IMG/VR virus record: IMGVR_UViG_3300048849_000019 | Coordinates: 1-25,336 of that record | DNA: 25,336 nucleotides | Reading direction: 5' to 3' (one strand) | Origin: a virus | Lineage: Duplodnaviria > Caudoviricetes | Shown: piece after piece, positions 2,848 to 14,283 of the stretch | How the letters are laid out: each line of letters starts with the position of its first letter | Position numbering within the stretch: position 1 is the first letter of the stretch | Notes under the pieces: model-generated | The model's input: only the letters and a program-made list of their open reading frames with translations | Told to the model about the DNA's origin: nothing | Database searches by the model: none | Position numbers and translations under genes: made by a program

Positions 2848-2893
2848 TCTGTCGGGTGCGTAATGCGGTCGATCTGCAGGGGCCGGCGGCCGC

Positions 2894-3301
2894 TCAGCTG
2901 AGGTTCGCGGCTGTCAACCTGCCGGCGTCGGTGCGCGGCGCGGTCATGCCGCCACGAAGCACTACGGTGTCGGCATCCAGCCGAAGCAGGTGCAGCAGGT
3001 GGGCGGCCGTGATGGCGCGGGTGATGCCCTGCGCCGGATCGAAGACGAAGACGGTGGAAGAGGTCGACCGATCCAGGTCGATGCGCAGGCCTGTGCGGCT
3101 GCTCTCGACTTCACCGATGGCATGCGCGGCCATCGTTTCAGCGGTCTCGGCCGACAAGTCAGCTTTCGCCATCAGCATCTGAACGATCTTGCCCATCAGC
3201 GCGTCGCGCATCGGATGGCGAAGATCCGCCGGCAGGCGAGTACGGGCAAACTCGACGGCCTCGAAGTGCAGGGCGTCACGGTCGGTTCTGGCGCGGCTCA
3301 T
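2894..3301 (-). CDS. hypothetical phage early protein, 135 aa (MSRARTDRD...)
   Basis: Internal ATG at 3301 overlaps the ogr-like stop (ATGA). The longer 3655 start in the ORF track would overlap two other genes. Confidence 0.7.
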   Translation of the reverse strand: MSRARTDRDALHFEAVEFARTRLPADLRHPMRDALMGKIVQMLMAKADLSAETAETMAAHAIGEVESSRTGLRIDLDRSTSSTVFVFDPAQGITRAITAAHLLHLLRLDADTVVLRGGMTAPRTDAGRLTAANLS

Positions 3302-3564
3302 AGCAAGTTTCCTTGGCGAGGGTCGGTAAGCGCGGCGATCTGGCGTGCGCGGTCGACGTGGGGCGACATCGGCACCATCACGTCGGGGTTCAGGACAGGG
3401 GGGAGATTTAGCGAGCGCGCCGCCTCGAGGGTGGCGACCCACGCGAAATTGCAGTCGAGGTTCTGACAGACGAAGGTCAGCTCGCGCATCGTCGTGGACA
3501 TCTCGCGGCTGCGACGAACGATCGAGCGTGTTCCGCAATGCGGGCAGCACATGGAAATGACCAC
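3298..3564 (-). CDS. ogr: Ogr/Delta-family zinc-finger late-transcription activator
   Basis: CPHCG...RRSREMS...CQNLDC: C4 zinc finger with Ogr-like spacing, in a P2-like phage. The start could be GTG 3564 or the nearby ATG (MCCPHC). Confidence 0.9.
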   Translation of the reverse strand: MVISMCCPHCGTRSIVRRSREMSTTMRELTFVCQNLDCNFAWVATLEAARSLNLPPVLNPDVMVPMSPHVDRARQIAALTDPRQGNLL

Positions 3565-3570
3565 GATGAG

Positions 3571-3768
3571 TTATTTCCGGCGGCCGCGTTCGCGCAGGAA
3601 TGCCGCGAAGCCGCGATTCATCATGATCCGAGCGAAGGCAGCCAGCGACCGGCAATCCTCATCGGCGAAACGCCGAAGCTCGTCCATCTCTTTCTGCGTG
3701 ACACGCAACCCGATCATCCGGGTTGGAGCCTTTCGCTCACGAACAGGTAGCTTTGGTGTACGTTTCAT
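3571..3768 (-). CDS. small basic DNA-binding protein, probable ribbon-helix-helix fold (Cro/Cox position)
   Basis: 65 aa. MIGLRVTQKEMDELRRFADEDCRSLAAFARIMM fits an alternating beta strand plus two helices (Arc/CopG-like pattern). First gene divergent from the repressor. Confidence 0.7.
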   Translation of the reverse strand: MKRTPKLPVRERKAPTRMIGLRVTQKEMDELRRFADEDCRSLAAFARIMMNRGFAAFLRERGRRK

Positions 3769-3801
3769 GTTGTGACAGGTGATATCAAGCGTGACGCCTT
3801 G

Positions 3802-3830
3802 AGTATGGAAAACAAACGTTTACCTGTCAA
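3802..3830 (-). promoter_or_regulatory. sigma70-type early (lytic) promoter
   Basis: Minus strand reads TTGACA (3830-3825), 17-nt spacer, CATACT (3807-3802), pointing at the RHH-ogr-primase operon. Confidence 0.8.
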
Positions 3831-3855
3831 TACATTTGGAAAGCATATGTCTACT
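3807..3855. promoter_or_regulatory. two putative repressor operators
   Basis: GGAAAACAAACGTTTACC (3807-3824, imperfect palindrome) and GGAAAGCATATGTCTACT (3838-3855) match at 13 of 18 positions and start 31 bp apart. Confidence 0.55.
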
Positions 3856-4203
3856 TTGGGAGAGCGTTTACGCGAGGAGCGTGAGCGCCTTGGGCTCAAC
3901 CAGACTGCACTGGGGGAGATGGGGCGGGTGAGCAAGGTGTCGCAAATCAACTACGAGACAGGGAAGCGGTCACCTGCTGGCGACTATCTGGCTGCTGTGG
4001 CAGTTGTAGGCGTCGATGTTCTGTACGTAGTTACTGGCGTTCGCACCCCAACGGGACCAGCAGCTTTGGACGCAGATACCCAGGGAATGGTCGACCTGTA
4101 TCAGAGGCTTCCGGTCGAAGACCGGGTCGCCATGAAGCGACTTGCCAATTCGGCAGCTGAACATGCCGGAGAGCCGAAGAAGCGCGCGCGCGGCGGCGAA
4201 TGA
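3847..4203 (+). CDS. XRE-family HTH phage immunity repressor, 118 aa
   Basis: MSTLGERLREERERLGLNQTALGEMGRVSKVSQINYETGKRSP...GVDVLYVVTG is a typical HTH_3/XRE phage repressor N-terminus. ATG 3847 is preferred because the upstream starts lie in the promoter/operator region. Confidence 0.9.
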   Translation: MSTLGERLREERERLGLNQTALGEMGRVSKVSQINYETGKRSPAGDYLAAVAVVGVDVLYVVTGVRTPTGPAALDADTQGMVDLYQRLPVEDRVAMKRLANSAAEHAGEPKKRARGGE

Positions 4204-4267
4204 CTCCGCGTATTAAATGGCTTGTAAGAATAATTAAGCTGCAAACGAAAAACTAAGCTGAGGCCGT

Positions 4268-5347
4268 ATGTCAACTGCAAACACGCGCGCAAAGGTGGCC
4301 GTGATGGGACAATTCGAACAAGTTGAGCGACGGAAACTCGCATTTTCATTTCGACGTGTTCAGAACCATTTAAACGCTGCCGGTATGCCTAGCGCGCAAG
4401 GATGGGACGCGTTGCGCGAAAAATATGATGCAATGGGGGTGGATAAGGACTGGACCAGCTTCGTTAACCCCGTGAAACAACTGCAGTTGGCATCACTCAG
4501 CAGCGGAAAGACAGCGGTGTCGGTATTTGAGATTGGCATTCCGCAGGTAACTTTGATGGCGGGGAGGGCGGCCGAACTGTTGGACCTCCAGTCTCCGTTC
4601 CACGCACGCTATCCGCGACTACTGGCAGACACGAATCTCGCTGCGGAGTCCATGAATGGGAAGTTCATTCGGCGCTTGGTATATGCCGACGGTTCGATAG
4701 CGTTGGTGGCGTGCGGGAAGCGGATTTACCGAGAGCGCGTAGTCCTAGCCTTAACAGCCACGCAACGCGCCGCGCTCGGCTCTTTCGACCAAGTGATAGG
4801 TGTGAGAGACCATATCGTTCAGTTCTTTGATCGTGTAGTTTTTCGACCGAGCCTGGGCATTGTCGATATTTTTGTTGATCAATGTTGTCCCGGCGGATTG
4901 CCAAAAGATCAAATTGAGAGCATCCAGGACTACTATGCGGTGATAATAAACAATCATTTTCGTAGCAATTTTTCTGGCAATGTTTTTCCTGGTAGAAAAA
5001 ATCTTTTTCCGCTAATACAACAGTTCTACGATGATCCTGACGGGCGCGTCACCGAGCTGAGCCATGCCACCTCTACGAATTCGATAAAGCATGAAAAAAT
5101 GCGAGGCAAGGAGGATGATTTGCGTTCCGAGGAGTTTCATTCGGTCGGGCTCGGTGCGGTCGACTTCACAGACATCTTCGCGATTAAGAAAGAATGGCCG
5201 AGCTTCGGCGGTATCGGCCTTCCGTCTATCGAGTTGCCCGGACAGTTTTCGGCTGCTTCGGATGTCACGCCACGCTTGGAATATGCAATAATCGACGGGT
5301 GCGCTAAGAGAATCGAGGTCGAGGGAATGGTAGGTAAACTTCACTGA
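4268..5347 (+). CDS. hypothetical protein, 359 aa (cargo gene 1, putative defence component)
   Basis: Long ORF in lower-GC DNA and first of three coupled genes. I recognise no catalytic motif or transmembrane segment. Confidence 0.85.
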   Translation: MSTANTRAKVAVMGQFEQVERRKLAFSFRRVQNHLNAAGMPSAQGWDALREKYDAMGVDKDWTSFVNPVKQLQLASLSSGKTAVSVFEIGIPQVTLMAGRAAELLDLQSPFHARYPRLLADTNLAAESMNGKFIRRLVYADGSIALVACGKRIYRERVVLALTATQRAALGSFDQVIGVRDHIVQFFDRVVFRPSLGIVDIFVDQCCPGGLPKDQIESIQDYYAVIINNHFRSNFSGNVFPGRKNLFPLIQQFYDDPDGRVTELSHATSTNSIKHEKMRGKEDDLRSEEFHSVGLGAVDFTDIFAIKKEWPSFGGIGLPSIELPGQFSAASDVTPRLEYAIIDGCAKRIEVEGMVGKLH

Positions 5348-5355
5348 ATGCGTTC

Positions 5356-5772
5356 ATGAAACTTCAGGTTGCCATATCTCTGATTAATGAGGATCTCGGG
5401 CCTATGCCTGAAATCCGTGATATGTGTATTTCCATCGTCAAGTACCTCGCATCGGCCGATCCGAAGCTACTTCGACGTGTTTCGTTTCGCATGTTGCAGG
5501 AGATCACCAAGGTCGAAGACCCTGCCGAGATGCTCCCTGCTGTTCAATATTTGAACGGAGCTAGAGTTAAGGCTTTGGCTCTAAGATTTAATTTTGTTAT
5601 CGACGACTACGAGGCAGAGATTGATGCCGATGTTGTCGAGACGGCACGCTCAGAAGGGCGCTTTTATCATCCAGAGACTGGCGATCCGGTCGACAATTTT
5701 GAAAGCAAGATATTCGTTCATTTCGTGCCTGGTAAGGACGGTGTCGAGTTTGCTGGGGCGGAATCTGAATGA
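5356..5772 (+). CDS. hypothetical protein, 138 aa (cargo gene 2, possible winged-helix-like)
   Basis: Starts 8 nt after the gene 1 stop. Helical N-terminal half, then beta-strand-like LALRFNFVID and FYHPETG. The fold is inferred. Confidence 0.8.
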   Translation: MKLQVAISLINEDLGPMPEIRDMCISIVKYLASADPKLLRRVSFRMLQEITKVEDPAEMLPAVQYLNGARVKALALRFNFVIDDYEAEIDADVVETARSEGRFYHPETGDPVDNFESKIFVHFVPGKDGVEFAGAESE

Positions 5773-6509
5773 GCCTCGGTGATATGTCGCTGGCTACTCT
5801 GGCCAGTCTGGGAGATCTCCATCCGACCTACGCGCGTGTCGTGCAGCGTATGTTGGTTGCCAGTTATCCTGCCTTCGTCGATCTGCTTCATAAAGATATC
5901 GATGCCTGTGTCGGCATTTTGGAAGAGGATCCAGGCGCGCGGGGAGAAAGTGGCGAAGATTTTCTCACTACTGAAATCGCCGGCATGCTGCGTTGCATGT
6001 CTTACGACGCCAGGAGGGAAGAGCGCGTAGGTGGTCATGCTGATCTGGTCGTTCGCCATGCACAAGGCTATCTCTGGGTCTGCGAGGCGAAGGTTCATGG
6101 TGCCTACGATCATCTGCTTCAGGGTTTCAATCAGTTGGTTACTCGTTACTCGCTGGGTACACCGAATTGCGATCTGGGCGGGGTGCTGATTTACATCCGC
6201 AATAAGAACGCAGCCGCCGTTGTGGCGAACTGGAAAACCCATTTAACGGTTCATGGCGGTCCCGGCCTTGTCTTCGAGACATGCAATGCGCGCGATGATC
6301 TGGCCTTCTATAGCACGCACAATCATGAGCGAACGGGCCGGCCATTTAAAATTCGGCATATGGGCGTAGTCCTAAATTTCGACCCTCAAGATAAAGCTCA
6401 GCCTTCGACCGCAGGCACGGGATCTCACGCCTCGGCATCGGCGCCTCCTTTGCAAGTCGCCGTGGCTGCGATCTTGCCGACAACGCCGACAGCGACTCAA
6501 ACGAATTGA
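5769..6509 (+). CDS. putative PD-(D/E)xK restriction-endonuclease-fold nuclease, 246 aa (cargo gene 3)
   Basis: ATGA overlap with gene 2. Motif series E63 (GEDFLT), D92 (GHADLVV), E106-x-K108 (WVCEAK), then QLVTRY. Confidence 0.75.
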   Translation: MSLGDMSLATLASLGDLHPTYARVVQRMLVASYPAFVDLLHKDIDACVGILEEDPGARGESGEDFLTTEIAGMLRCMSYDARREERVGGHADLVVRHAQGYLWVCEAKVHGAYDHLLQGFNQLVTRYSLGTPNCDLGGVLIYIRNKNAAAVVANWKTHLTVHGGPGLVFETCNARDDLAFYSTHNHERTGRPFKIRHMGVVLNFDPQDKAQPSTAGTGSHASASAPPLQVAVAAILPTTPTATQTN

Positions 6510-6552
6510 TTGGTAATCGTTTTGACTGACGACCGGAGCAGGTCGACTGCGC

Positions 6553-7584
6553 TCAATCGTCGCCGTCCGAAGTGTCCGGCGGATCTTCGACCAGGTCGGG
6601 CCGGTCGGTGGTCTCGAGCTCGAGTGATGTTGTAAATCCGCTGCTGCTGAGCTCGTGGACGGCGCGTGCTGTGATCCAGGTCGTGGCGCTGATCTGCTGC
6701 TTCATGCCGGTGAAGCGGACGCTCGTCTGCGGTGCGAGATCCGCGCGTCCGTAGGCCAACGTGAAATGCATCGTTGCGGCGCCACGCTGGACCCGCTCCC
6801 ATTCGGCCTTCGCGGCGTCCAGCGCGTCGCGCTCGCTGGCATAGGTGTCGCGCAGCCGCTTTGCGTTGCCGGACACGCCGGCGATGACGCTGCGCCGCTG
6901 CGCTTTCCTCGGGTCATGCCAGTACGCGCGCACGCCGCTGTAGGAGTCGCGCCCGGCTTCCTGGTACCGGTGTCGATCGCCGTCGACGCGCGCGATCGTG
7001 ATGGTGGGCAATGGCGTGCCGCTGGCCGTCGCCGACATGCGCGCCGGCAGGAACAGCAGATGGCCCGATTTCACAGTGGCCACGGCGTCGAAGCGCTTGC
7101 CGAGCCTGGTCAGGAAGTGCAGGTCGGATTCCGCCGCCTGGTCGATGTGGTCGATCACGGTGCCGGCGGCCGCGCCGACCCGCGCGGCCAGGCCGTGGTC
7201 GCCGGCGATCGCGGCGACGATCTGCCCGATCGTCTGGCCGTGGAAACTGCGATCTTTCCGCACGCGCATGGCTTCCTGCATGTCAGCGCTGCGCGCCCGG
7301 ATGGTCAGGATGTCGGGCGCGCCGCTGTGCTCGACCTCGTCGACAATAAATCGGCCCTTCTGCACCAGGCCGGTGTCGGCCCACCCGAGGGCAACTGTCA
7401 GGGCGACGCCTTTGCGCGGGATGGCGACCTGGCCGTCGTGATCGCTGATGACGATGTCCAGCTGGTCGACTTCCTCGCTGCGCGCTTCGGTGATGCGAAG
7501 GCTCTGCAGGCGCGGCGCGATCTTCGCGCTCAGGTCTTTCCCGTCGAGCGTCACCCGCCAGGCCGGCGTCCGGTGCCCGCTCAT
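6553..7584 (-). CDS. D: P2 gpD-like tail/baseplate hub (late control D) protein
   Basis: DQLDIVISDHDG, LGWADTGLVQKGRFIVDEVEHSGAPD, HIDQAAESDLHFLTRL. Last gene of the tail operon, after U. Confidence 0.93.
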   Translation of the reverse strand: MSGHRTPAWRVTLDGKDLSAKIAPRLQSLRITEARSEEVDQLDIVISDHDGQVAIPRKGVALTVALGWADTGLVQKGRFIVDEVEHSGAPDILTIRARSADMQEAMRVRKDRSFHGQTIGQIVAAIAGDHGLAARVGAAAGTVIDHIDQAAESDLHFLTRLGKRFDAVATVKSGHLLFLPARMSATASGTPLPTITIARVDGDRHRYQEAGRDSYSGVRAYWHDPRKAQRRSVIAGVSGNAKRLRDTYASERDALDAAKAEWERVQRGAATMHFTLAYGRADLAPQTSVRFTGMKQQISATTWITARAVHELSSSGFTTSLELETTDRPDLVEDPPDTSDGDD

Positions 7585-8048
7585 GCCGACATACCCGCGT
7601 TGACCAGGTCGCCCGCCATCAGCTGGCTCGAGTCGGCCATGGCGACATCGTCGTCGACCCGACTTTCGTCCACGCGCTTCAGCGAAAGGTCGAACTCGAT
7701 GCGGCGCGGCGTGCCGTCGCCGAAGAAGAGCGTCGCGGTCTCGGTGAGGTTGTCGATCACGTAAGCGCCGTAGACGCTGCCAGTGCCGTCGACGAGCACG
7801 TAGGCCAGTCCGGTATCACCCATCTTGCGTAATGCGTCCAGCGAGGCCCTGCGGCCCTGGATCTGGGGGGTAATCAGGCCGGGCAGGTTCACGGTCTCCG
7901 CGCCGATGCCCAGAAACTGATTTCCGTCCCGCGTGCCGATGCGAGCCACGTCGGCGTGCTTCCAGGCGTTCACCCGGCGGAATTCCTGGTAGGCGAGGGT
8001 TTCCATGCCGAAGGCGAACAGCCCGAGCGACATCATGTTGTTGGCCAT
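7581..8048 (-). CDS. U: P2 gpU-like tail protein
   Basis: MMSLGLFAF...QFLGIG...LVDGTGSVYG...FFGDGTPRRIEFDLSLKRVD. ATG 8048 follows a GGGGGA ribosome-binding sequence; the start is slightly uncertain. Confidence 0.92.
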   Translation of the reverse strand: MANNMMSLGLFAFGMETLAYQEFRRVNAWKHADVARIGTRDGNQFLGIGAETVNLPGLITPQIQGRRASLDALRKMGDTGLAYVLVDGTGSVYGAYVIDNLTETATLFFGDGTPRRIEFDLSLKRVDESRVDDDVAMADSSQLMAGDLVNAGMSA

Positions 8049-8050
8049 GC

Positions 8051-10630
8051 TCAATCCCCCCGGTCAGACATGCTCGAGCGGCCGCGCGCTGCGCGATCGC
8101 TGTCACGCTGCTCGAGCTGCTGGCGAACGGCGGCCGCGATCGCCTGCGGATCTGCGCCGCCGGTGACGTTGATGTGAATCGTGATGGTGTCGCCGGCGAC
8201 GACGGGCGCCGGGCGTGCAGCTGCAGCTGCGGCGATCGGCGGACGGGTGTCGAAGCGCAGCGGCTCGGCGTCGCCCAGCACGCCGGCGCCAGCCGGCGAC
8301 AGCGCGCCGCCGGCGATGAGGGCCGTGGCCAGGGCTTTCGTCGCGCGGATGGCGTCAGGCTGCGCGCGCTCGATGCCGATCGCGGCGCCCTCGCTGATGT
8401 TCCCGCCGTAGCCGATGAACACCCGGCTCGGCGAGTGGATGCCCAGCTTCTCCTTGAACCATGACATCGTGCTGTCGGCCGCGCCGCCGATCGCGTCCTT
8501 CACGACGCCCAGACTGTTCGAGATCCCGGCCGCGAACCCCTGCAGGACCATGCTGCCGGCCTCGGTGAACTTCGCGGGCAGGTCCACGCCCAGATAGCTC
8601 ATCACGGCCGCGAACGCGGTGTAGAGCAGCCCGACCGGCGACCAGTTGACCAGCATCGCGCTGATGCTGCCGATGCCGCCGCTGAATGCTGTCTGCACCT
8701 GGCCCCAGAGACCGACGAAAAACGCCTTGATCGGATCCCAATACTGGTAGATCAGCAGCGCCGCCGTGCCGATCGCCGTGACGGCCAGGCCGATCGGGTT
8801 GGCCACCAGCGCCATGGTGACGGCGCGCACGGCGCCGAGCAGGAAGGGCAGCGCGCCCCTGGCTAGGCCCATCAGCACGCCGCCCAGGCCGCCGCCAGCG
8901 ATGCCGAGGTAGGACATGGCCAGCTTCAGCCCGGCCAGCGGGATGAGCACGCTTCCCACGATCAGCATCAGGCCGCCGAAGGCGAACAGCAGCGTCGCAA
9001 TCACGGCGACCACGCGCCCGATCGTCGCGACAAGCTCGGGATTCGCTCGCGCCCACGCGCCGACGCTCGAGGCCATGCGGCCCAGGTAGTTGAGGACGGC
9101 CTTCATGTCGGGTGCCATCGCAGCGCCGATGTCGGCCAGGGCGTTGGTGTAGCTGCCGCCGGCGGCGTCCGCGACGTTCTGCAGTGTGGTGAGCTGCGCC
9201 TTCACGCGCTCCTGCAGGGACGCCTGGCCGTCGAGCTTGCCCTTCATTTCCTGGTACCCGGCCATGCCTTTCGACATGATCGTGTTGACGACCTGCAGCG
9301 TCTCGGCGTCGTCGCCGAAGAGCTCCTTCAGCACGCTCATGCGCTTCATGCTGTTCAGGTCTTTCAGCTTGTCCAGCTGCGCGAAGAGCTTGTCGAGCCC
9401 GCCGAACTCGCCCTTGCCATCGGAAAAGTCGAGTTGCTGCTTCGGGTCGAGCAGGTCGTTCGCCTTGCCCAGCTTCTTGATGTCCAGCGTGGACTGGACG
9501 ACCTTGCGGATCGCGTTGCCCGATGCCTCGCCCGCCATGCCGGCCTGGTCCATCATCGCGACGAGCGGATTCAGCATCTGCACCGCCTCGAGGCCTTCCT
9601 TCTTGATGAGGCTCAGCGCCGGCGCGATCTTGCTGTAGGCGTTCAGCATGTTGTCGGGGTCGACGCCGGCGTAAAACCCGCGCTGGATGGCATCCATCAG
9701 CCCCATCATGTCGCCTTCGGTCGTGCGCGTGGCGTCCTGCATCTTGGCCGAGAACTCGGCGGCGCCGTCGAAGGGCATCTTCAGCAGCACGCCGGCGTAG
9801 GCCGTGGCCTCGCCAAGCCCGCCCAGGATGGCCTGGTCGCTCATGCCCTGACGTTTGAGCATGGTCATCATGTTCTGGAAGTCGGCGGTCGTGCCGGGTA
9901 GCAGGTCGCCGAGCTCGGTGGCCAGCCGCTTGATCTTCTCGTACTGGTCCGACACCTCGGCGCCCTTGCCCATCATCGACACCTGCAGCTGCGTCGCGGC
10001 GTCTTCCGCCGGCGCGAAAGCCTGCACGATCGCGCTGATCGGCGTGGTGACGGCGTAGCCGGCGCCGATGGCCACCGCGCCCGTCGCGGCTATGCTGCCG
10101 GCGGCGCTCTTCGACTTCGCATAGGCGGCATGCGCAGCGCCGAGGCGCTTCAGGCGACTCGCCTGGTCGGTGATCTGCCGATTCGTCTGGTCGATGTTCT
10201 CGCGAAGCCGGATCTCGTCGCGCGCCAGGTTGGCGGTCGACACGCCGGCGGTGGCCAGCCCGTCGCGAAGGCGCTGGAGCTCGGCACGCTGCTCGGCCTC
10301 GGCCGCCTCCAGCCGGCCGGCCGCGCGCACGGCGTTGTCGAAGTCCCGTTGCATGCCGCGCGTGGGCTCGGCAGTCCCGCGCATGGCGTTGGCCAGGTCG
10401 CGCACCTTGGCGCGCGCCTGGTCGAGATCTCCGCGCGTCTTGGCCAGACCCTGCGACAGTTCGCGGAACTCGCCCACCTCGCGCTGCGCGGCGTTCAGCT
10501 GCTTCACCTTGTCCCGCAGTGCTTTCATCTCTCGGCCGGCTGCGGTGGCGCCGCCGAGGATCCGATTCAGCGGCGCGGTGATGTTCTCCATGGCGCCCAG
10601 GATGATGCGAAGGCGTAGGTCGTTGCTCAT
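8051..10630 (-). CDS. T: tail tape-measure protein, 859 aa
   Basis: Ala/Gly-rich coiled-coil N-terminus, hydrophobic ANPIGLAV...YQYWDPIKAFF segment, C-terminal LGIHSPSRVF. Located after E/E'. Confidence 0.95.
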   Translation of the reverse strand: MSNDLRLRIILGAMENITAPLNRILGGATAAGREMKALRDKVKQLNAAQREVGEFRELSQGLAKTRGDLDQARAKVRDLANAMRGTAEPTRGMQRDFDNAVRAAGRLEAAEAEQRAELQRLRDGLATAGVSTANLARDEIRLRENIDQTNRQITDQASRLKRLGAAHAAYAKSKSAAGSIAATGAVAIGAGYAVTTPISAIVQAFAPAEDAATQLQVSMMGKGAEVSDQYEKIKRLATELGDLLPGTTADFQNMMTMLKRQGMSDQAILGGLGEATAYAGVLLKMPFDGAAEFSAKMQDATRTTEGDMMGLMDAIQRGFYAGVDPDNMLNAYSKIAPALSLIKKEGLEAVQMLNPLVAMMDQAGMAGEASGNAIRKVVQSTLDIKKLGKANDLLDPKQQLDFSDGKGEFGGLDKLFAQLDKLKDLNSMKRMSVLKELFGDDAETLQVVNTIMSKGMAGYQEMKGKLDGQASLQERVKAQLTTLQNVADAAGGSYTNALADIGAAMAPDMKAVLNYLGRMASSVGAWARANPELVATIGRVVAVIATLLFAFGGLMLIVGSVLIPLAGLKLAMSYLGIAGGGLGGVLMGLARGALPFLLGAVRAVTMALVANPIGLAVTAIGTAALLIYQYWDPIKAFFVGLWGQVQTAFSGGIGSISAMLVNWSPVGLLYTAFAAVMSYLGVDLPAKFTEAGSMVLQGFAAGISNSLGVVKDAIGGAADSTMSWFKEKLGIHSPSRVFIGYGGNISEGAAIGIERAQPDAIRATKALATALIAGGALSPAGAGVLGDAEPLRFDTRPPIAAAAAARPAPVVAGDTITIHINVTGGADPQAIAAAVRQQLEQRDSDRAARGRSSMSDRGD

Positions 10631-10743
10631 GTCTCGGATCCACTTCGTTGCCGGGCGCGCTCGCGCCAGGCCATCAGGTCGGCCAGGCCCATTTCATTCA
10701 TCGCGGCCGGTGGCCAATGGAAGACGACCGCGATGTCTGCCAT
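10627..10743 (-). CDS. E': gpE' tail-assembly chaperone extension (38 aa from its ATG; C-terminal part of the E+E' frameshift product)
   Basis: MADIAVVFHWPPAAMNEMGLADLMAWRERARQRSGSET matches the P2 GpE-family pattern. Its stop overlaps the T start (ATGA). Not in the ORF track. Confidence 0.9.
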   Translation of the reverse strand: MADIAVVFHWPPAAMNEMGLADLMAWRERARQRSGSET

Positions 10744-10751
10744 CGCGTCTT

Positions 10752-11075
10752 CTACTGCGCGAGGGATTCCCGCTGTGCCTTCTTGAGCAAAAAACTTGCG
10801 ATGCTCACGCCCATTTCGGTCAGGTCGGCCGGGTCCAGCGCGCGCACTTCGTGGTCGACCAGGCTGGGCGTCGAGATCCGGGGAATCAGACGGGTGAGGG
10901 TGCCGACTTCCATGGCGGCGACCTCGTGCAGCGACAGGCCGCGCAGTTCGCCGGCGGAAGGCTTGCGCAGCGTCACGGCGGCGATGGTCTGGTCACCGCG
11001 AACGATCGGCACGTCGAGGGTGACGATCACGTCGCTGGTGGGCGTGGCGGTGGTGGTGCTTGCGGCGTTGGCCAT
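10752..11075 (-). CDS. E: tail assembly chaperone gpE
   Basis: TLDVPIVRG...TLRKPSAGELRGLSL...LIPRISTPSL...LDPADL. ATG 11075 is preceded by GGAG. Confidence 0.9.
   Translation of the reverse strand: MANAASTTTATPTSDVIVTLDVPIVRGDQTIAAVTLRKPSAGELRGLSLHEVAAMEVGTLTRLIPRISTPSLVDHEVRALDPADLTEMGVSIASFLLKKAQRESLAQ
10788..10794 (-). promoter_or_regulatory. programmed -1 frameshift site TTTTTTG (E to E+E')
   Basis: mRNA reads AGT TTT TTG. The -1 frame is open (FAQEGTAGIPRAVEDA) and runs into MADIAVVFHW. Confidence 0.85.
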
Positions 11076-11131
11076 GGTGGCTCCGGTGGTGTGGTGAAGG
11101 GTGCCGGCGGGCAGGCGCCGCCGGCGGAAGA

Positions 11132-11647
11132 TCAAACGCCGATCGCGCGGCGGTGCTCGGCTAGGCGGTCGACGCCGCCATAGATCTCGATCATGTTGAT
11201 GAGGTCGATTTCCACGTCGACGACGCCATTGACCGATTCCTTGTAGTAGGTCGCATCGGTGGTGATCTTCGTCGTGGTGTCCTCGCCGGGCTTCATCTCG
11301 CCCCGGTCGATCTCGTTGTGCCGGCCGCGAATGACGATCTCGACGGCGTCGACAGCGCCGGTGTCGTCACGCTGCAGCGAGCAGACGAAACGCAGCATCA
11401 CGCCGCTCGCCGACGCGTTGCCCATCTGCTGGATGACCTGGCGGGCGTAGCCGCCCACCGTCCATTCGATCTGAAGGGCATCGTCGTCCAGGCCGTGGTC
11501 GACCTTGACGGCGCCGGCCAGGCCGCCGCCACGGAAGGGCTCATTCTTGCGGGTGAGCTTCGGCAGGGTGAACGATTCGGCCTCGCCCACGTAGGTGCGG
11601 CCTTCGTTGAAGATGTTGAGGTGCTTGAGTTTGGCGGGCAGGGCCAT
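11132..11647 (-). CDS. FII: major tail tube protein
   Basis: MALPAKLKHLNIFNEG...LPKLTRK...RGGG...GVDRLAEHRRAIG. Confidence 0.96.
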   Translation of the reverse strand: MALPAKLKHLNIFNEGRTYVGEAESFTLPKLTRKNEPFRGGGLAGAVKVDHGLDDDALQIEWTVGGYARQVIQQMGNASASGVMLRFVCSLQRDDTGAVDAVEIVIRGRHNEIDRGEMKPGEDTTTKITTDATYYKESVNGVVDVEIDLINMIEIYGGVDRLAEHRRAIGV

Positions 11648-11672
11648 GTGTTACTCCGGCGGGTGGTTGGGT

Positions 11673-11695
11673 GACCAGGTGCGCCGCACCTGGTC
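11673..11695. repeat. perfect inverted repeat between FI and FII
   Basis: GACCAGGTGC-GCC-GCACCTGGTC, a 10-bp stem with no U-tract. Confidence 0.7.
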
Positions 11696-11704
11696 GGATG
11701 GCGA

Positions 11705-12880
11705 TCAGCCGTTGATGCGCGACGCGAAGTCGATCAGGTAGGTGTCGGTGATTCGCTGCTGGAAATTCAGGTTTTCCAGCGGCGGGACCGGCGTGTAGTC
11801 GTAATCGATCGTGAGCTTGCCGCTCTTCAGGTTGTCGACGCTGTTCACCTCTTCGTCGTACCAGGCCTGGCCGTCGATGATGTACCCGCGCGCTTTCAGG
11901 TCGGCGAACTTGCGATTGATGCCTTCGATGATGTCGCGGATCAGCGAGGGATGCATCGGCGCGTCGACCGGCCACATATGGGCCTCGGCGATCGTGTCGG
12001 CGATCACCTGCGCCGTGCGGGTGTAGTTCTCGAACGGGAACAGGCTGTCGGCGCCGGCGCAGGTCCGGCTACCCCAGAAGCGGAAGCCGTTGTGGTTGAT
12101 GAGCGTCGTGACATCGAGGGCGTTCAGGTAGCCCGCATCGGTGGCCGGGTTCTGCAGATCCCAGAACACGCTGCGGCTGATCCCGGTCACGTTGTTCACG
12201 ACGACGTTGGACAGCGTCTTGTGCCAGCCGACCTCTTCGTCGAGCTTGGCGCGCAGGCCGAGGGCGACGGCGGTCGACGACAGCGTCGACGCGCTGCTGG
12301 TGACGGTGTTCCAGTTCTGGAAGTCCGGCCAGATCACCATGATTTCGCGCTGGCCGAAGGATTCGCGGTAGGCCGCGACCTCTTCCTTCGTCTGGCAGTC
12401 CCACGCCGACACGTAGGCGAAGGCGCGCAGCTGCTCGGCGACGCTGGCCAGGGCAACCGCGACCGCCTTGGTATCCAAGCCAGGCGCGCCGAGGATGCGC
12501 GGCTTGACCTGCAGCTGGCTCTGGGCGGCCAGCAGCGCCCGCATGCCGGTGTACTGGCCTTGCGCGTTGGTGCCGCCGATCACGTTGGTGGTGGTCTCGG
12601 CTTCGTCGTCGCCTTCGGCCACGCGCACGACGATCGTGAGCGGGCGCGCTTGGCTCGCGATCGCGTTCAGCGTGCGGGCGAGGGTGCCGGTCGTGCCAGC
12701 CTTGCCGACAGCCGTCAGCACGTTGGTGACGAGGACGGGCACGTTCAGGGGGAACATGGTCGCGTCGGCATCGTCGGCCGTGGCGATCAGGCCGATGACG
12801 GCGGTTGCGATGGTGCGGATCGGGCGCGTGCCGGCGTTGATTTCGACGACGCGCGTGCCGTGGTGGTAATCGGTGGCCAT
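11705..12880 (-). CDS. FI: tail sheath protein
   Basis: MATDYHHG...VKPRILGAPGLD...GWHKTLSNV...GFRFWGSRTC...DYDYTPVPPLENL. Confidence 0.97.
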   Translation of the reverse strand: MATDYHHGTRVVEINAGTRPIRTIATAVIGLIATADDADATMFPLNVPVLVTNVLTAVGKAGTTGTLARTLNAIASQARPLTIVVRVAEGDDEAETTTNVIGGTNAQGQYTGMRALLAAQSQLQVKPRILGAPGLDTKAVAVALASVAEQLRAFAYVSAWDCQTKEEVAAYRESFGQREIMVIWPDFQNWNTVTSSASTLSSTAVALGLRAKLDEEVGWHKTLSNVVVNNVTGISRSVFWDLQNPATDAGYLNALDVTTLINHNGFRFWGSRTCAGADSLFPFENYTRTAQVIADTIAEAHMWPVDAPMHPSLIRDIIEGINRKFADLKARGYIIDGQAWYDEEVNSVDNLKSGKLTIDYDYTPVPPLENLNFQQRITDTYLIDFASRING

Positions 12881-12945
12881 GGAATTCTCCGGGAGGCGGT
12901 TGTATGGACTGCGGCAGCGGCGCTGCCAGGGAAACGGGGCGCGGG

Positions 12946-13410
12946 CTATGCCTGCGGCGTCCAGTTCGACGGACGTTCGGACAACTGCACGGGTGCGGCA
13001 AGGATCTCGCCGGCGCGGGGTTCCTTGATGAGGCCCTTCGCCACCAGCGCCTGCAGGCCTTGCTGGGCGTCTTCGCCGTTGAGGTCGATGTATTCGCTGA
13101 CGGTCACGAACAGCATCACGTCAGCGACGACGATGTCTGTTTGCTGCGCGGCGGTGATGACCGCGCGTTCCTCGAGGGTGAAGCGCTTCAGGAATGCCAG
13201 CCGGGTGATGCGCCTGTCCTCGACGACCGGGGGCGTCGGCAGGTCGGGCGTGGGTGCGGGCGGCGCCCAGCCGTCGCCGGACAACTTCCAGCCAGGCCGG
13301 ATATCGTCCGGTACGGGAGCGAATTGGGCAGCAAGGGCCGGGTGATACAGCTTCGGATTGCCGGTGATTTCCGCGACGGTATCGCCGTCGAAGCGTGCGT
13401 AGTTCGTCAT
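12946..13410 (-). CDS. putative tail-fibre-associated/assembly protein, 154 aa
   Basis: Starts 3 nt after the Gly-rich gene. N-terminal YARF...VPDDIRPGW domain, Pro-rich linker, helical RRITRLAFLKRFTLEER domain. Occupies the position of P2 gene G. Confidence 0.6.
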   Translation of the reverse strand: MTNYARFDGDTVAEITGNPKLYHPALAAQFAPVPDDIRPGWKLSGDGWAPPAPTPDLPTPPVVEDRRITRLAFLKRFTLEERAVITAAQQTDIVVADVMLFVTVSEYIDLNGEDAQQGLQALVAKGLIKEPRAGEILAAPVQLSERPSNWTPQA

Positions 13411-13413
13411 GGC

Positions 13414-14283
13414 TCAATACTCCACAACGACGGAACCATTGCCGCCGTAGGTGATCGGGTAGGACTGTCCTGGAACGACGGGGATTTCGCCCATCGCGAA
13501 GCCGCCGCCGCCGCCGCCAGGCCCTTGCATACCGGTCCTGCCGCCGCCGGTATACGGTTGCGCCTGCGCGCCCGGCGAGGACCAGAACCCTTGTGTCGAG
13601 ACCTGGCCGCCTGAGCCGCCCGCCGACCATCCAGCGGCCACGGTTGCCGCCCCTCCCTGGCCAGGGCCGGCCGCACCAGGAACCCCGGTGTAGGGAACGC
13701 CCAGGTTCGGGAACGATTCGCCCGGAAACCGCGCGTAAAGGGAGATGACGCCCATCAAGAATGCGTCGCCTGCAGCTGGGTTTGCTGGTGTGCCGGATGC
13801 GCCAGGCGTGCCGCCAATCTGGCCGCCGGGAGTCGCGTCGCCGCCGTTGCCGAGGACGGACCCAGCCGCCCCGCCGGCGCCGCCGGCATAGGCCGAGCCC
13901 GAACCGCTCCAGGACGGCGTATCCGAACCCTTGCCCCCGTTCGCCCGGTAGTCACCGCCGATGCCGACGCCGCCGGTGCCGCCCGTGCTGCCCGGTACTG
14001 CTCCGCCACCAGTCGCAGAGATCAGCCCGCCGAACGAACTTGTCGGCCCGGCCCCCGGTGTGCCGAACACCGACCCCGACCCCGTGCAGCGAACGCGCAC
14101 CAAGGTGACGCCGGGCGGGCAGACCCATTGCACGGTCACGGAATCGCCGGACCCGCTCTCGTGCCCGAAGAGTCGGAACCGCATGGAGCCGAACGGCTCC
14201 ATGCGACCACGAGCGGACGCCCAGGGCAGGCCGGCGACGGCCGCCGCAACGGCCGTGGGGGCTGCGGTGAGGAAGCGGCCCAT
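13414..14283 (-). CDS. glycine-rich tail-fibre/receptor-binding-like protein, 289 aa
   Basis: WVCPPGVTLVRVRCTGSG...SSFGGLISATGG...GGGGGGFA...VVPGQSYPITYGGNGSVVVEY. TAATG coupling to the upstream gene. Confidence 0.7.
   Translation of the reverse strand: MGRFLTAAPTAVAAAVAGLPWASARGRMEPFGSMRFRLFGHESGSGDSVTVQWVCPPGVTLVRVRCTGSGSVFGTPGAGPTSSFGGLISATGGGAVPGSTGGTGGVGIGGDYRANGGKGSDTPSWSGSGSAYAGGAGGAAGSVLGNGGDATPGGQIGGTPGASGTPANPAAGDAFLMGVISLYARFPGESFPNLGVPYTGVPGAAGPGQGGAATVAAGWSAGGSGGQVSTQGFWSSPGAQAQPYTGGGRTGMQGPGGGGGGFAMGEIPVVPGQSYPITYGGNGSVVVEY

Follow-up and report, generated by a model that had tools for sequence, protein, structure and literature searches.

The stretch of viral DNA analysed here, hereafter the window (25,336 nucleotides at its full length), is a fragment of a P2-like prophage, as judged from its sequence and its Pfam and PHROG matches. 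A primase, an Ogr-type activator and Arc-like and HTH regulators occupy its left part, and tail, lysis and head genes its right part; a 289-aa ORF beside the tail-fibre gene (13414–14283) has no PHROG match at E 1e-5. Between an HTH repressor and the convergent P2-like gene D lies a cassette of three co-oriented genes (Table 1), the first two separated by an 8-nt gap and the last two overlapping by ATGA. Coordinates and translations (359, 138 and 246 aa) agree with the preliminary description of this DNA, and the Pfam matches HTH_31 and Phage_GPD confirm the flanks that it had assigned. The repressor is co-oriented with gene 1 and ends 64 nt upstream of it; we infer its ATG start, the longest ORF beginning at 3772. 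The true start of gene 1 may be a later ATG.

Table 1. Features of the cassette and its flanks, in window coordinates.
Feature	Position	Strand	Evidence
HTH repressor	3847..4203	+	Pfam HTH_31 E 2.6e-7; PHROG regulators
Swappable low-GC cargo interval	4205..6552	.	GC drop; absent from sister prophage L153
Gene 1, 359 aa	4268..5347	+	DS-21 protein 1 homolog
Helix-loop-helix, residues 28-55 of protein 1	4349..4432	+	resembles SAP/HeH DNA-binding motif
Gene 2, 138 aa	5356..5772	+	DS-21 protein 2 homolog
Gene 3, 246 aa	5769..6509	+	DS-21 protein 3 homolog
Predicted catalytic core codons E63, D92, E106, K108, Q122, Y127	5955..6149	+	invariant, 42/42 rows of alignment A6
P2-like gene D (gpD, tail), convergent right flank	6553..7584	-	Pfam Phage_GPD E 7.8e-16; phrog_52

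The cassette stands apart from its surroundings in composition, with a GC content of 0.519 in 4204–6552 against 0.671 in the remaining window, and a third-position GC of 0.56, 0.49 and 0.55 in genes 1, 2 and 3 against 0.86–0.91 in the primase, gene D and tape measure genes. The earlier count of 22 G+C in 60 positions (4921–4980), offered as a sign of AT-richness, is correct but marks a low point of the interval. A sister prophage (L153) aligns to window positions 6553–13584 at 97.7% and to 2848–4204 at 80%; nothing aligns between 4204 and 6553, where it carries other genes. The slot between repressor and gene D is a cargo swap site, the exchange being seen in one sister genome, which gives no frequency. 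No sigma-70-like promoter was found on the plus strand of 3700–6700, and terminator matches in that interval are at chance level; that the cassette is co-transcribed with the repressor is no more than a guess.

The family was recognised by a motif search of the DefensePredictor supplementary tables (Science 2026; PMC13092281), whose Table S6 gives DS-21 (working id TOXO; WP_001532221.1, WP_021552536.1 and WP_001557682.1) as three hypothetical proteins, defensive and replicated. Four viral loci fetched with a DS-21 motif (L148, L149, L151 and L152) carry genes for products of 365, 140 and 211 aa whose sequences, by reading, are the same as those in the DS-21 rows of that paper. On our family profiles, DS-21 protein 1 scores 195.5 bits (positions 3–351 of 353, profile A5), protein 2 115.8 bits (2–129 of 134) and protein 3 198 bits (7–211 of 215). 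These profiles were built from relatives of the window proteins before DS-21 was found, and because their nearest members are only 25–36% identical to DS-21, the test is not circular. Direct blastp comparison of the window proteins with their DS-21 counterparts gives 24% identity over 279 aa (E 5e-15) for protein 1, 33% over 126 aa (E 2e-13) for protein 2 and 33% over 205 aa (E 1e-33) for protein 3, and the gene order 1-2-3 is the same in the window and in the DS-21 locus L148 (5870–4773, 4762–4340 and 4347–3712).

All three proteins are thus homologous over most of their length, the sizes are alike (365/140/211 aa in DS-21 and 359/138/246 aa in the window), and both trios hold a prophage cargo position, DS-21 copies lying between a Q-like gene and lysis genes. 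The two differ in that identity is low (24–33%), that the window is a P2-like high-GC prophage whereas DS-21 resides in an E. coli lambdoid prophage, and that the window protein 3 has a 35-residue low-confidence tail absent from DS-21; in the nuclease tree, protein 3 lies 2.5 substitutions/site from DS-21 protein 3. On sequence grounds the cassette is a new, distant member of the validated system DS-21. It is very probably both a member and defensive, the evidence for protection being that of the E. coli DS-21 copy, to which the window copy is only 24–33% identical. Homology of all three proteins to DS-21 refutes the alternative of a new system raised in the preliminary description, and its proposal of anti-phage cargo with a PD-(D/E)xK effector is upheld by the validation of the orthologous trio in E. 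coli and by the swappable slot.

In E. coli, DS-21 gives -log EOP values of 4.5 against Bas1, 2.0 against Bas11, 0.8 against Bas67, 0.5 against Bas3, 0.3 against T3 and 0.2 against Bas9 (Table S7, PMC13092281). Protection is narrow across these six rows, with four of the six phages below 1 log. As far as the main text and tables of that source extend, DS-21 is never named in the former, and most of protein 1 is without a fold in the latter. What was already known is DS-21 as a row in a screen, without mechanism and with its largest protein mostly unannotated; our search of the literature open without subscription found no mechanistic paper on the trio. For DS-21 protein 3, Table S8 of the same source lists the catalytic positions D103 and EXK at 121–123, as against D94 and E109-A-K111 when counted on the listed sequence.

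Family models did not reveal this relationship. No match at E<=1 was found in Pfam or PADLOC for any of the three proteins, NCBIfam returned one sub-threshold match (protein 1, E 0.14), and PDB sequence searches with profiles of all three gave nothing below E 0.1. Each protein matches one PHROG of unknown function, and 135 protein-1 relatives gave 3 scattered single matches in PADLOC. DS-21 itself gives only one partial PADLOC match (PDC-S54, protein 3, E 7e-6), and the blank family scans therefore say nothing on novelty. Ten enterobacterial members and their clusters are named hypothetical or uncharacterised, except for two UniRef 'ZinT' labels on protein-3 relatives, which nothing in our analysis supports. 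Azaca was considered and dropped; it gave no PADLOC match, and its listing points to a nuclease-NTPase system.

The likeness to Rst_3HP (Rousset 2022, pFR109) drawn in the preliminary description extends to three unannotated genes in a P2 hotspot. Membership is not supported: in the tables of that source, the Hp proteins, set apart by reading the sequences, measure roughly 340, 360 and 230 aa, with Hp2 at ~360 aa, and have neither a small middle protein nor the ExAK and GxxQLxxRY motifs of the family. The middle gene encodes 138 aa in the window and 129–154 aa in most relatives, at odds with three proteins of similar size. Six family motifs sought in the Rousset 2022 tables (PMC9122126) are absent from the table of validated systems and occur only in Table S5B, where protein 2 of System 91 of the P2 hotspot catalogue matches, by reading, protein 2 of one of our loci (L037), which places System 91 in the family of the window trio. 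System 91 is listed there with 36 occurrences, no Pfam and no annotation, and the parts of PMC9122126 consulted give no sign of its functional testing.

Protein 1 is modelled with high confidence (pLDDT 96.9), and the model predicts a short helical N-terminus followed by a body of RdgC/RexA type. With residues 78–359, Foldseek places RdgC on top (E 5.9e-5), its three matches below 0.001 all being RdgC chains, and VIA places RdgC first (Z 9.8–10.2, about 220 aligned residues, rmsd 6.1–7.8). The match is moderate (TM about 0.32–0.37, rmsd 6–10). CENP-L and Iml3 are next in VIA (Z 7.2–7.6), and the next unrelated match, a COR domain (Z 8.3), falls on one half of the protein; RexA, KwaB and GAPS4b are not among the structural matches listed. 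The same structural set, RdgC with CENP-L/Iml3, is reported for lambda RexA in PMC11077077, which also describes RdgC as a dimeric ring with no sequence preference in its DNA binding and states that DNA binding by RexA did not correlate with exclusion. A shared fold of RdgC type does not show function.

The conserved basic positions of protein 1 (R22, R152, R157, R180, K274, K277, R279 and R286, with 83–99% K/R) would fit DNA binding. The model places helices at residues 28–37 and 46–55; across 135 rows, G45 is conserved in 86% and W46 in 90%. These N-terminal helices weakly suggest a SAP/HeH-like motif, judged against the SAP pattern. The DS-21 entry in the tables of PMC13092281 gives HeH/SAP a probability of 0.64 at residues 16–48. 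The Atlas, which scores language-model likeness, links protein 1 to GapS4b-family clusters (score 0.92, 195/256 features) and finds the family on 26% of the members of that GapS4b cluster, which serves as a lead only. Prediction of a two-copy complex of protein 1 reached a median of 0.38 against a mark of 0.42, which counts neither for nor against a dimer. Protein 1 is likely a DNA sensor.

Protein 2 is likely winged-helix-like and an adaptor or regulator, its fold being taken from the DS-21 table (wHTH 0.80, DUF5939 0.94; PMC13092281, as tabulated) and from an Atlas link to a DUF5939-containing cluster at 0.83, itself a lead only.

Protein 3 is a predicted PD-(D/E)xK nuclease of BamHI/OkrAI type. 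Its model has a pLDDT of 90.1, falling to 58–65 in the tail, and the four best VIA matches are OkrAI, BamHI, BglII and BstYI (Z 8.2–9.1, 132–142 residues aligned, rmsd 3.5–3.7); Foldseek gave no match below E 0.001. The family motif reads GGHxD-WxxExK-GxxQLxxRY, and the E...D...ExK...QxxxxY series first noticed in gene 3 proved invariant in all 42 aligned relatives. The Ala/Thr/Pro-rich, low-confidence tail spans about 35 residues (about 211–246; window 6400–6509), and some Paraburkholderia protein-3 relatives are of similar length (243–245 aa). The nearest relatives of protein 3 come from Paraburkholderia and Burkholderia genomes (46–50% identity), on a branch with a support of only 0.40.

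The preliminary description had treated the three genes as one unit, and they do recur together and in unchanged order in both Proteobacteria and cyanobacteria; the trio is accordingly not a product of chance. Searches with protein 3 gave 62 viral loci: 60 have the complete trio in order, and the other 2 end at a contig edge. Each of 5 annotated phage-collection regions contains the full set. Among 79 genome loci found with protein 3, the trio is present in 60; in 13 the nuclease ends a HEAT-repeat protein, 4 are cut by the contig end, and 2 (L080 and L125) lack gene 1 but hold the other two genes. Searching from the other side, with a motif of protein 1, retrieved 46 metagenome loci, all of which encode that protein, and both partners follow in 39/39 of those with at least 1100 nt downstream. 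These linkage loci are not independent samples. Clustered at 50% identity, protein 1 alone accounts for at least 394 clusters (E up to 0.001).

The trio occupies the slot between replication genes and portal in a Klebsiella P2-like phage, a place next to the integrase gene in a PM2-like Vibrio phage and, in 7 Stx1a phage records, a position flanked by antiterminator Q and stx1A, with the trio on the opposite strand (L001, 3956–6063). DS-21 itself (L148) occupies a place before lysis genes equivalent to that of the trio in L001. The trio is common in enterobacterial prophages, Stx1a phages included, and the family is present in non-phage loci too. About 8 of 108 flanking ORFs match plausible defence models, a count from crude gene calls without a control, after two matches (a kinase and a radical SAM protein) were set aside as generic; enrichment in defence islands is not shown by it. 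Type II or IIG methyltransferase models match 2 of the 108, and among 60 genome loci no neighbour family is shared by more than 5. In six loci (L074, L128, L133, L143, L144 and L168) gene 1 or 2 is split, truncated or interrupted beside an intact gene 3; if these copies are real, the nuclease is harmless to the cell when its partners are lost. In a Sphingopyxis MAG (L125, 6483–10618), a type I HsdR frame runs into the gene-2 domain, followed by gene 3 without gene 1, and this joint may be either a real fusion or an assembly artefact.

The HEAT-repeat proteins that end in the nuclease (13/79 genome loci) are mostly NACHT-HEAT proteins of cyanobacteria: a NACHT domain is seen in 10, contig ends truncate 2 more, and the last is a short HEAT form. 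The NACHT-HEAT-nuclease proteins measure about 1000–1200 aa (L098, L100, L101, L103, L104, L106, L108, L110, L116 and L138), and the fused gene ends near 10540 in these loci except L104, L110 and L116. In a midpoint-rooted FastTree phylogeny of 108 rows, all 13 of the fused nucleases group in a single clade (support 1.0) that sits within the trio nucleases of cyanobacteria (0.84, 0.98), a pattern that would fit one recruitment of the nuclease effector by an NLR-like sensor. The fused forms are without about the first 25–30 residues of protein 3. Protein 3 behaves as a portable effector, and the fusions point to a second family using the same nuclease, candidate NLR-like proteins with a C-terminal effector.

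Three known arrangements invite comparison. GAPS4, the nearest parallel with a worked-out mechanism, has a predicted GapS4b ring that holds DNA and a PD-(D/E)xK subunit that docks on the ring; when DNA is damaged, the chromosome is degraded and the cell dies (PMC13748975). It resembles the trio in pairing such a nuclease with a partner predicted to form rings and, as a lead, in the Atlas likeness of protein 1 to GapS4b clusters. It differs in having two genes with the nuclease first, the motif HGxD-SxK and no winged-helix subunit, whereas the window has three genes and its own nuclease motif; the GAPS4 models in Pfam give no sequence match to protein 1. In lambda, rexAB lies behind the cI repressor. 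RexA shares the RdgC/Iml3 fold set in the account of PMC11077077, but its effector partner RexB is a membrane protein, whereas the effector in the window is a predicted nuclease. By reading, none of the three proteins has a long hydrophobic stretch, which sets them apart from a RexB-type effector; together with the nuclease fold predicted for protein 3 and the wHTH-like protein 2, this bears out the earlier view that the trio contains no membrane protein. The remark that it contains no methyltransferase also stands, since none lies in the cassette or recurs beside relatives, and the cognate enzyme of type II restriction-modification is absent from the cassette. Tentatively, DS-21, GAPS4 and RexAB could form one defence class in which an RdgC-type sensor encircles DNA and the outputs are exchangeable. 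DS-21 would then be the form whose sensor acts by way of a winged-helix adaptor on a BamHI-like nuclease, and cyanobacteria would have taken this nuclease once to arm an undescribed NACHT-HEAT (NLR-like) family at the C-terminus.

The best explanation overall, which we regard as probable, is a DS-21-family cassette in which an RdgC-type sensor is linked by protein 2 to a nuclease, with a likely abortive outcome. Protein 1 would form a dimeric ring of RdgC/RexA type through which abnormal DNA arising during infection is threaded, or which caps such DNA, the trigger perhaps being DNA ends or replication or recombination intermediates. Within a putative three-protein complex, and likely via the winged-helix protein 2, it would switch on protein 3, whose degradation of DNA would likely lead to abortive infection and not to direct restriction of the phage. 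A division of labour into sensor, adaptor and nuclease fits the predicted folds, and because there is no methyltransferase, the nuclease would be kept off until triggered. The coupling of an RdgC-type DNA sensor to a nuclease seems to us a better than even prospect, and the whole chain, cell death included, somewhat short of an even one. The predicted RdgC-type fold of protein 1 offers a concrete, testable model of sensing.

Two other mechanisms draw on the same data. Direct restriction, in which phage DNA entering the cell would be recognised by the complex through its sequence, a modification or a free end and then be cut, with the cell surviving, accords with the structural closeness of protein 3 to the sequence-specific BamHI/OkrAI/BglII/BstYI group, with the DNA-binding motifs predicted in both proteins 1 and 2 and with the narrow phage range of DS-21. 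We consider it unlikely, given that a methyltransferase is neither in the cassette nor recurrent beside it and that the nuclease alone is fused to NACHT-HEAT proteins, which is more in keeping with a switchable effector than with a site-specific enzyme. A guard or toxin-antitoxin arrangement is more doubtful still: protein 2 would keep the nuclease inactive, and protein 1 would bind a phage protein, not DNA, so that release of protein 2 frees the nuclease. The ATGA overlap of genes 2 and 3, their occurrence together without gene 1 in two loci, the absence from fused nucleases of an N-terminal stretch that may be a docking segment, and the report that RexA exclusion is not strictly dependent on DNA binding (PMC11077077) all speak for such guarding, whereas protein 1 retains many basic residues and a predicted RdgC-type fold. 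Protein 2, with no invariant column besides a near-invariant G109, fits either role.

It is very improbable that the window copy is without activity or has a role in the prophage's own affairs, such as lysogeny control or recombination, and not in defence. Its place directly after the repressor in the same direction, the influence that RexA can have on the lambda switch (PMC11077077) and the split or truncated relatives L074, L133, L143 and L144 would agree with such a role, but the window copy keeps its three frames unbroken and retains every invariant residue, a 97.7% identical sister prophage does without the cassette, the family extends to non-phage loci, and DS-21 is defensive.

The slot of that sister prophage (L153) holds, on the minus strand (8834–7459), a DUF6731 protein of 319 aa and a hydrophobic protein of 139 aa; the slot genes run in the direction of the repressor. 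The pair has no PADLOC match, the DUF6731 protein does not match protein 1 in profile comparison (probability 0.2), and DUF6731 is not mentioned in the P. putida RexAB paper. Their layout recalls RexAB, and by this analogy the two are candidates for a defence pair of RexAB type. In the same prophage, gene D is followed by a 120-aa ORF (7049–7411).
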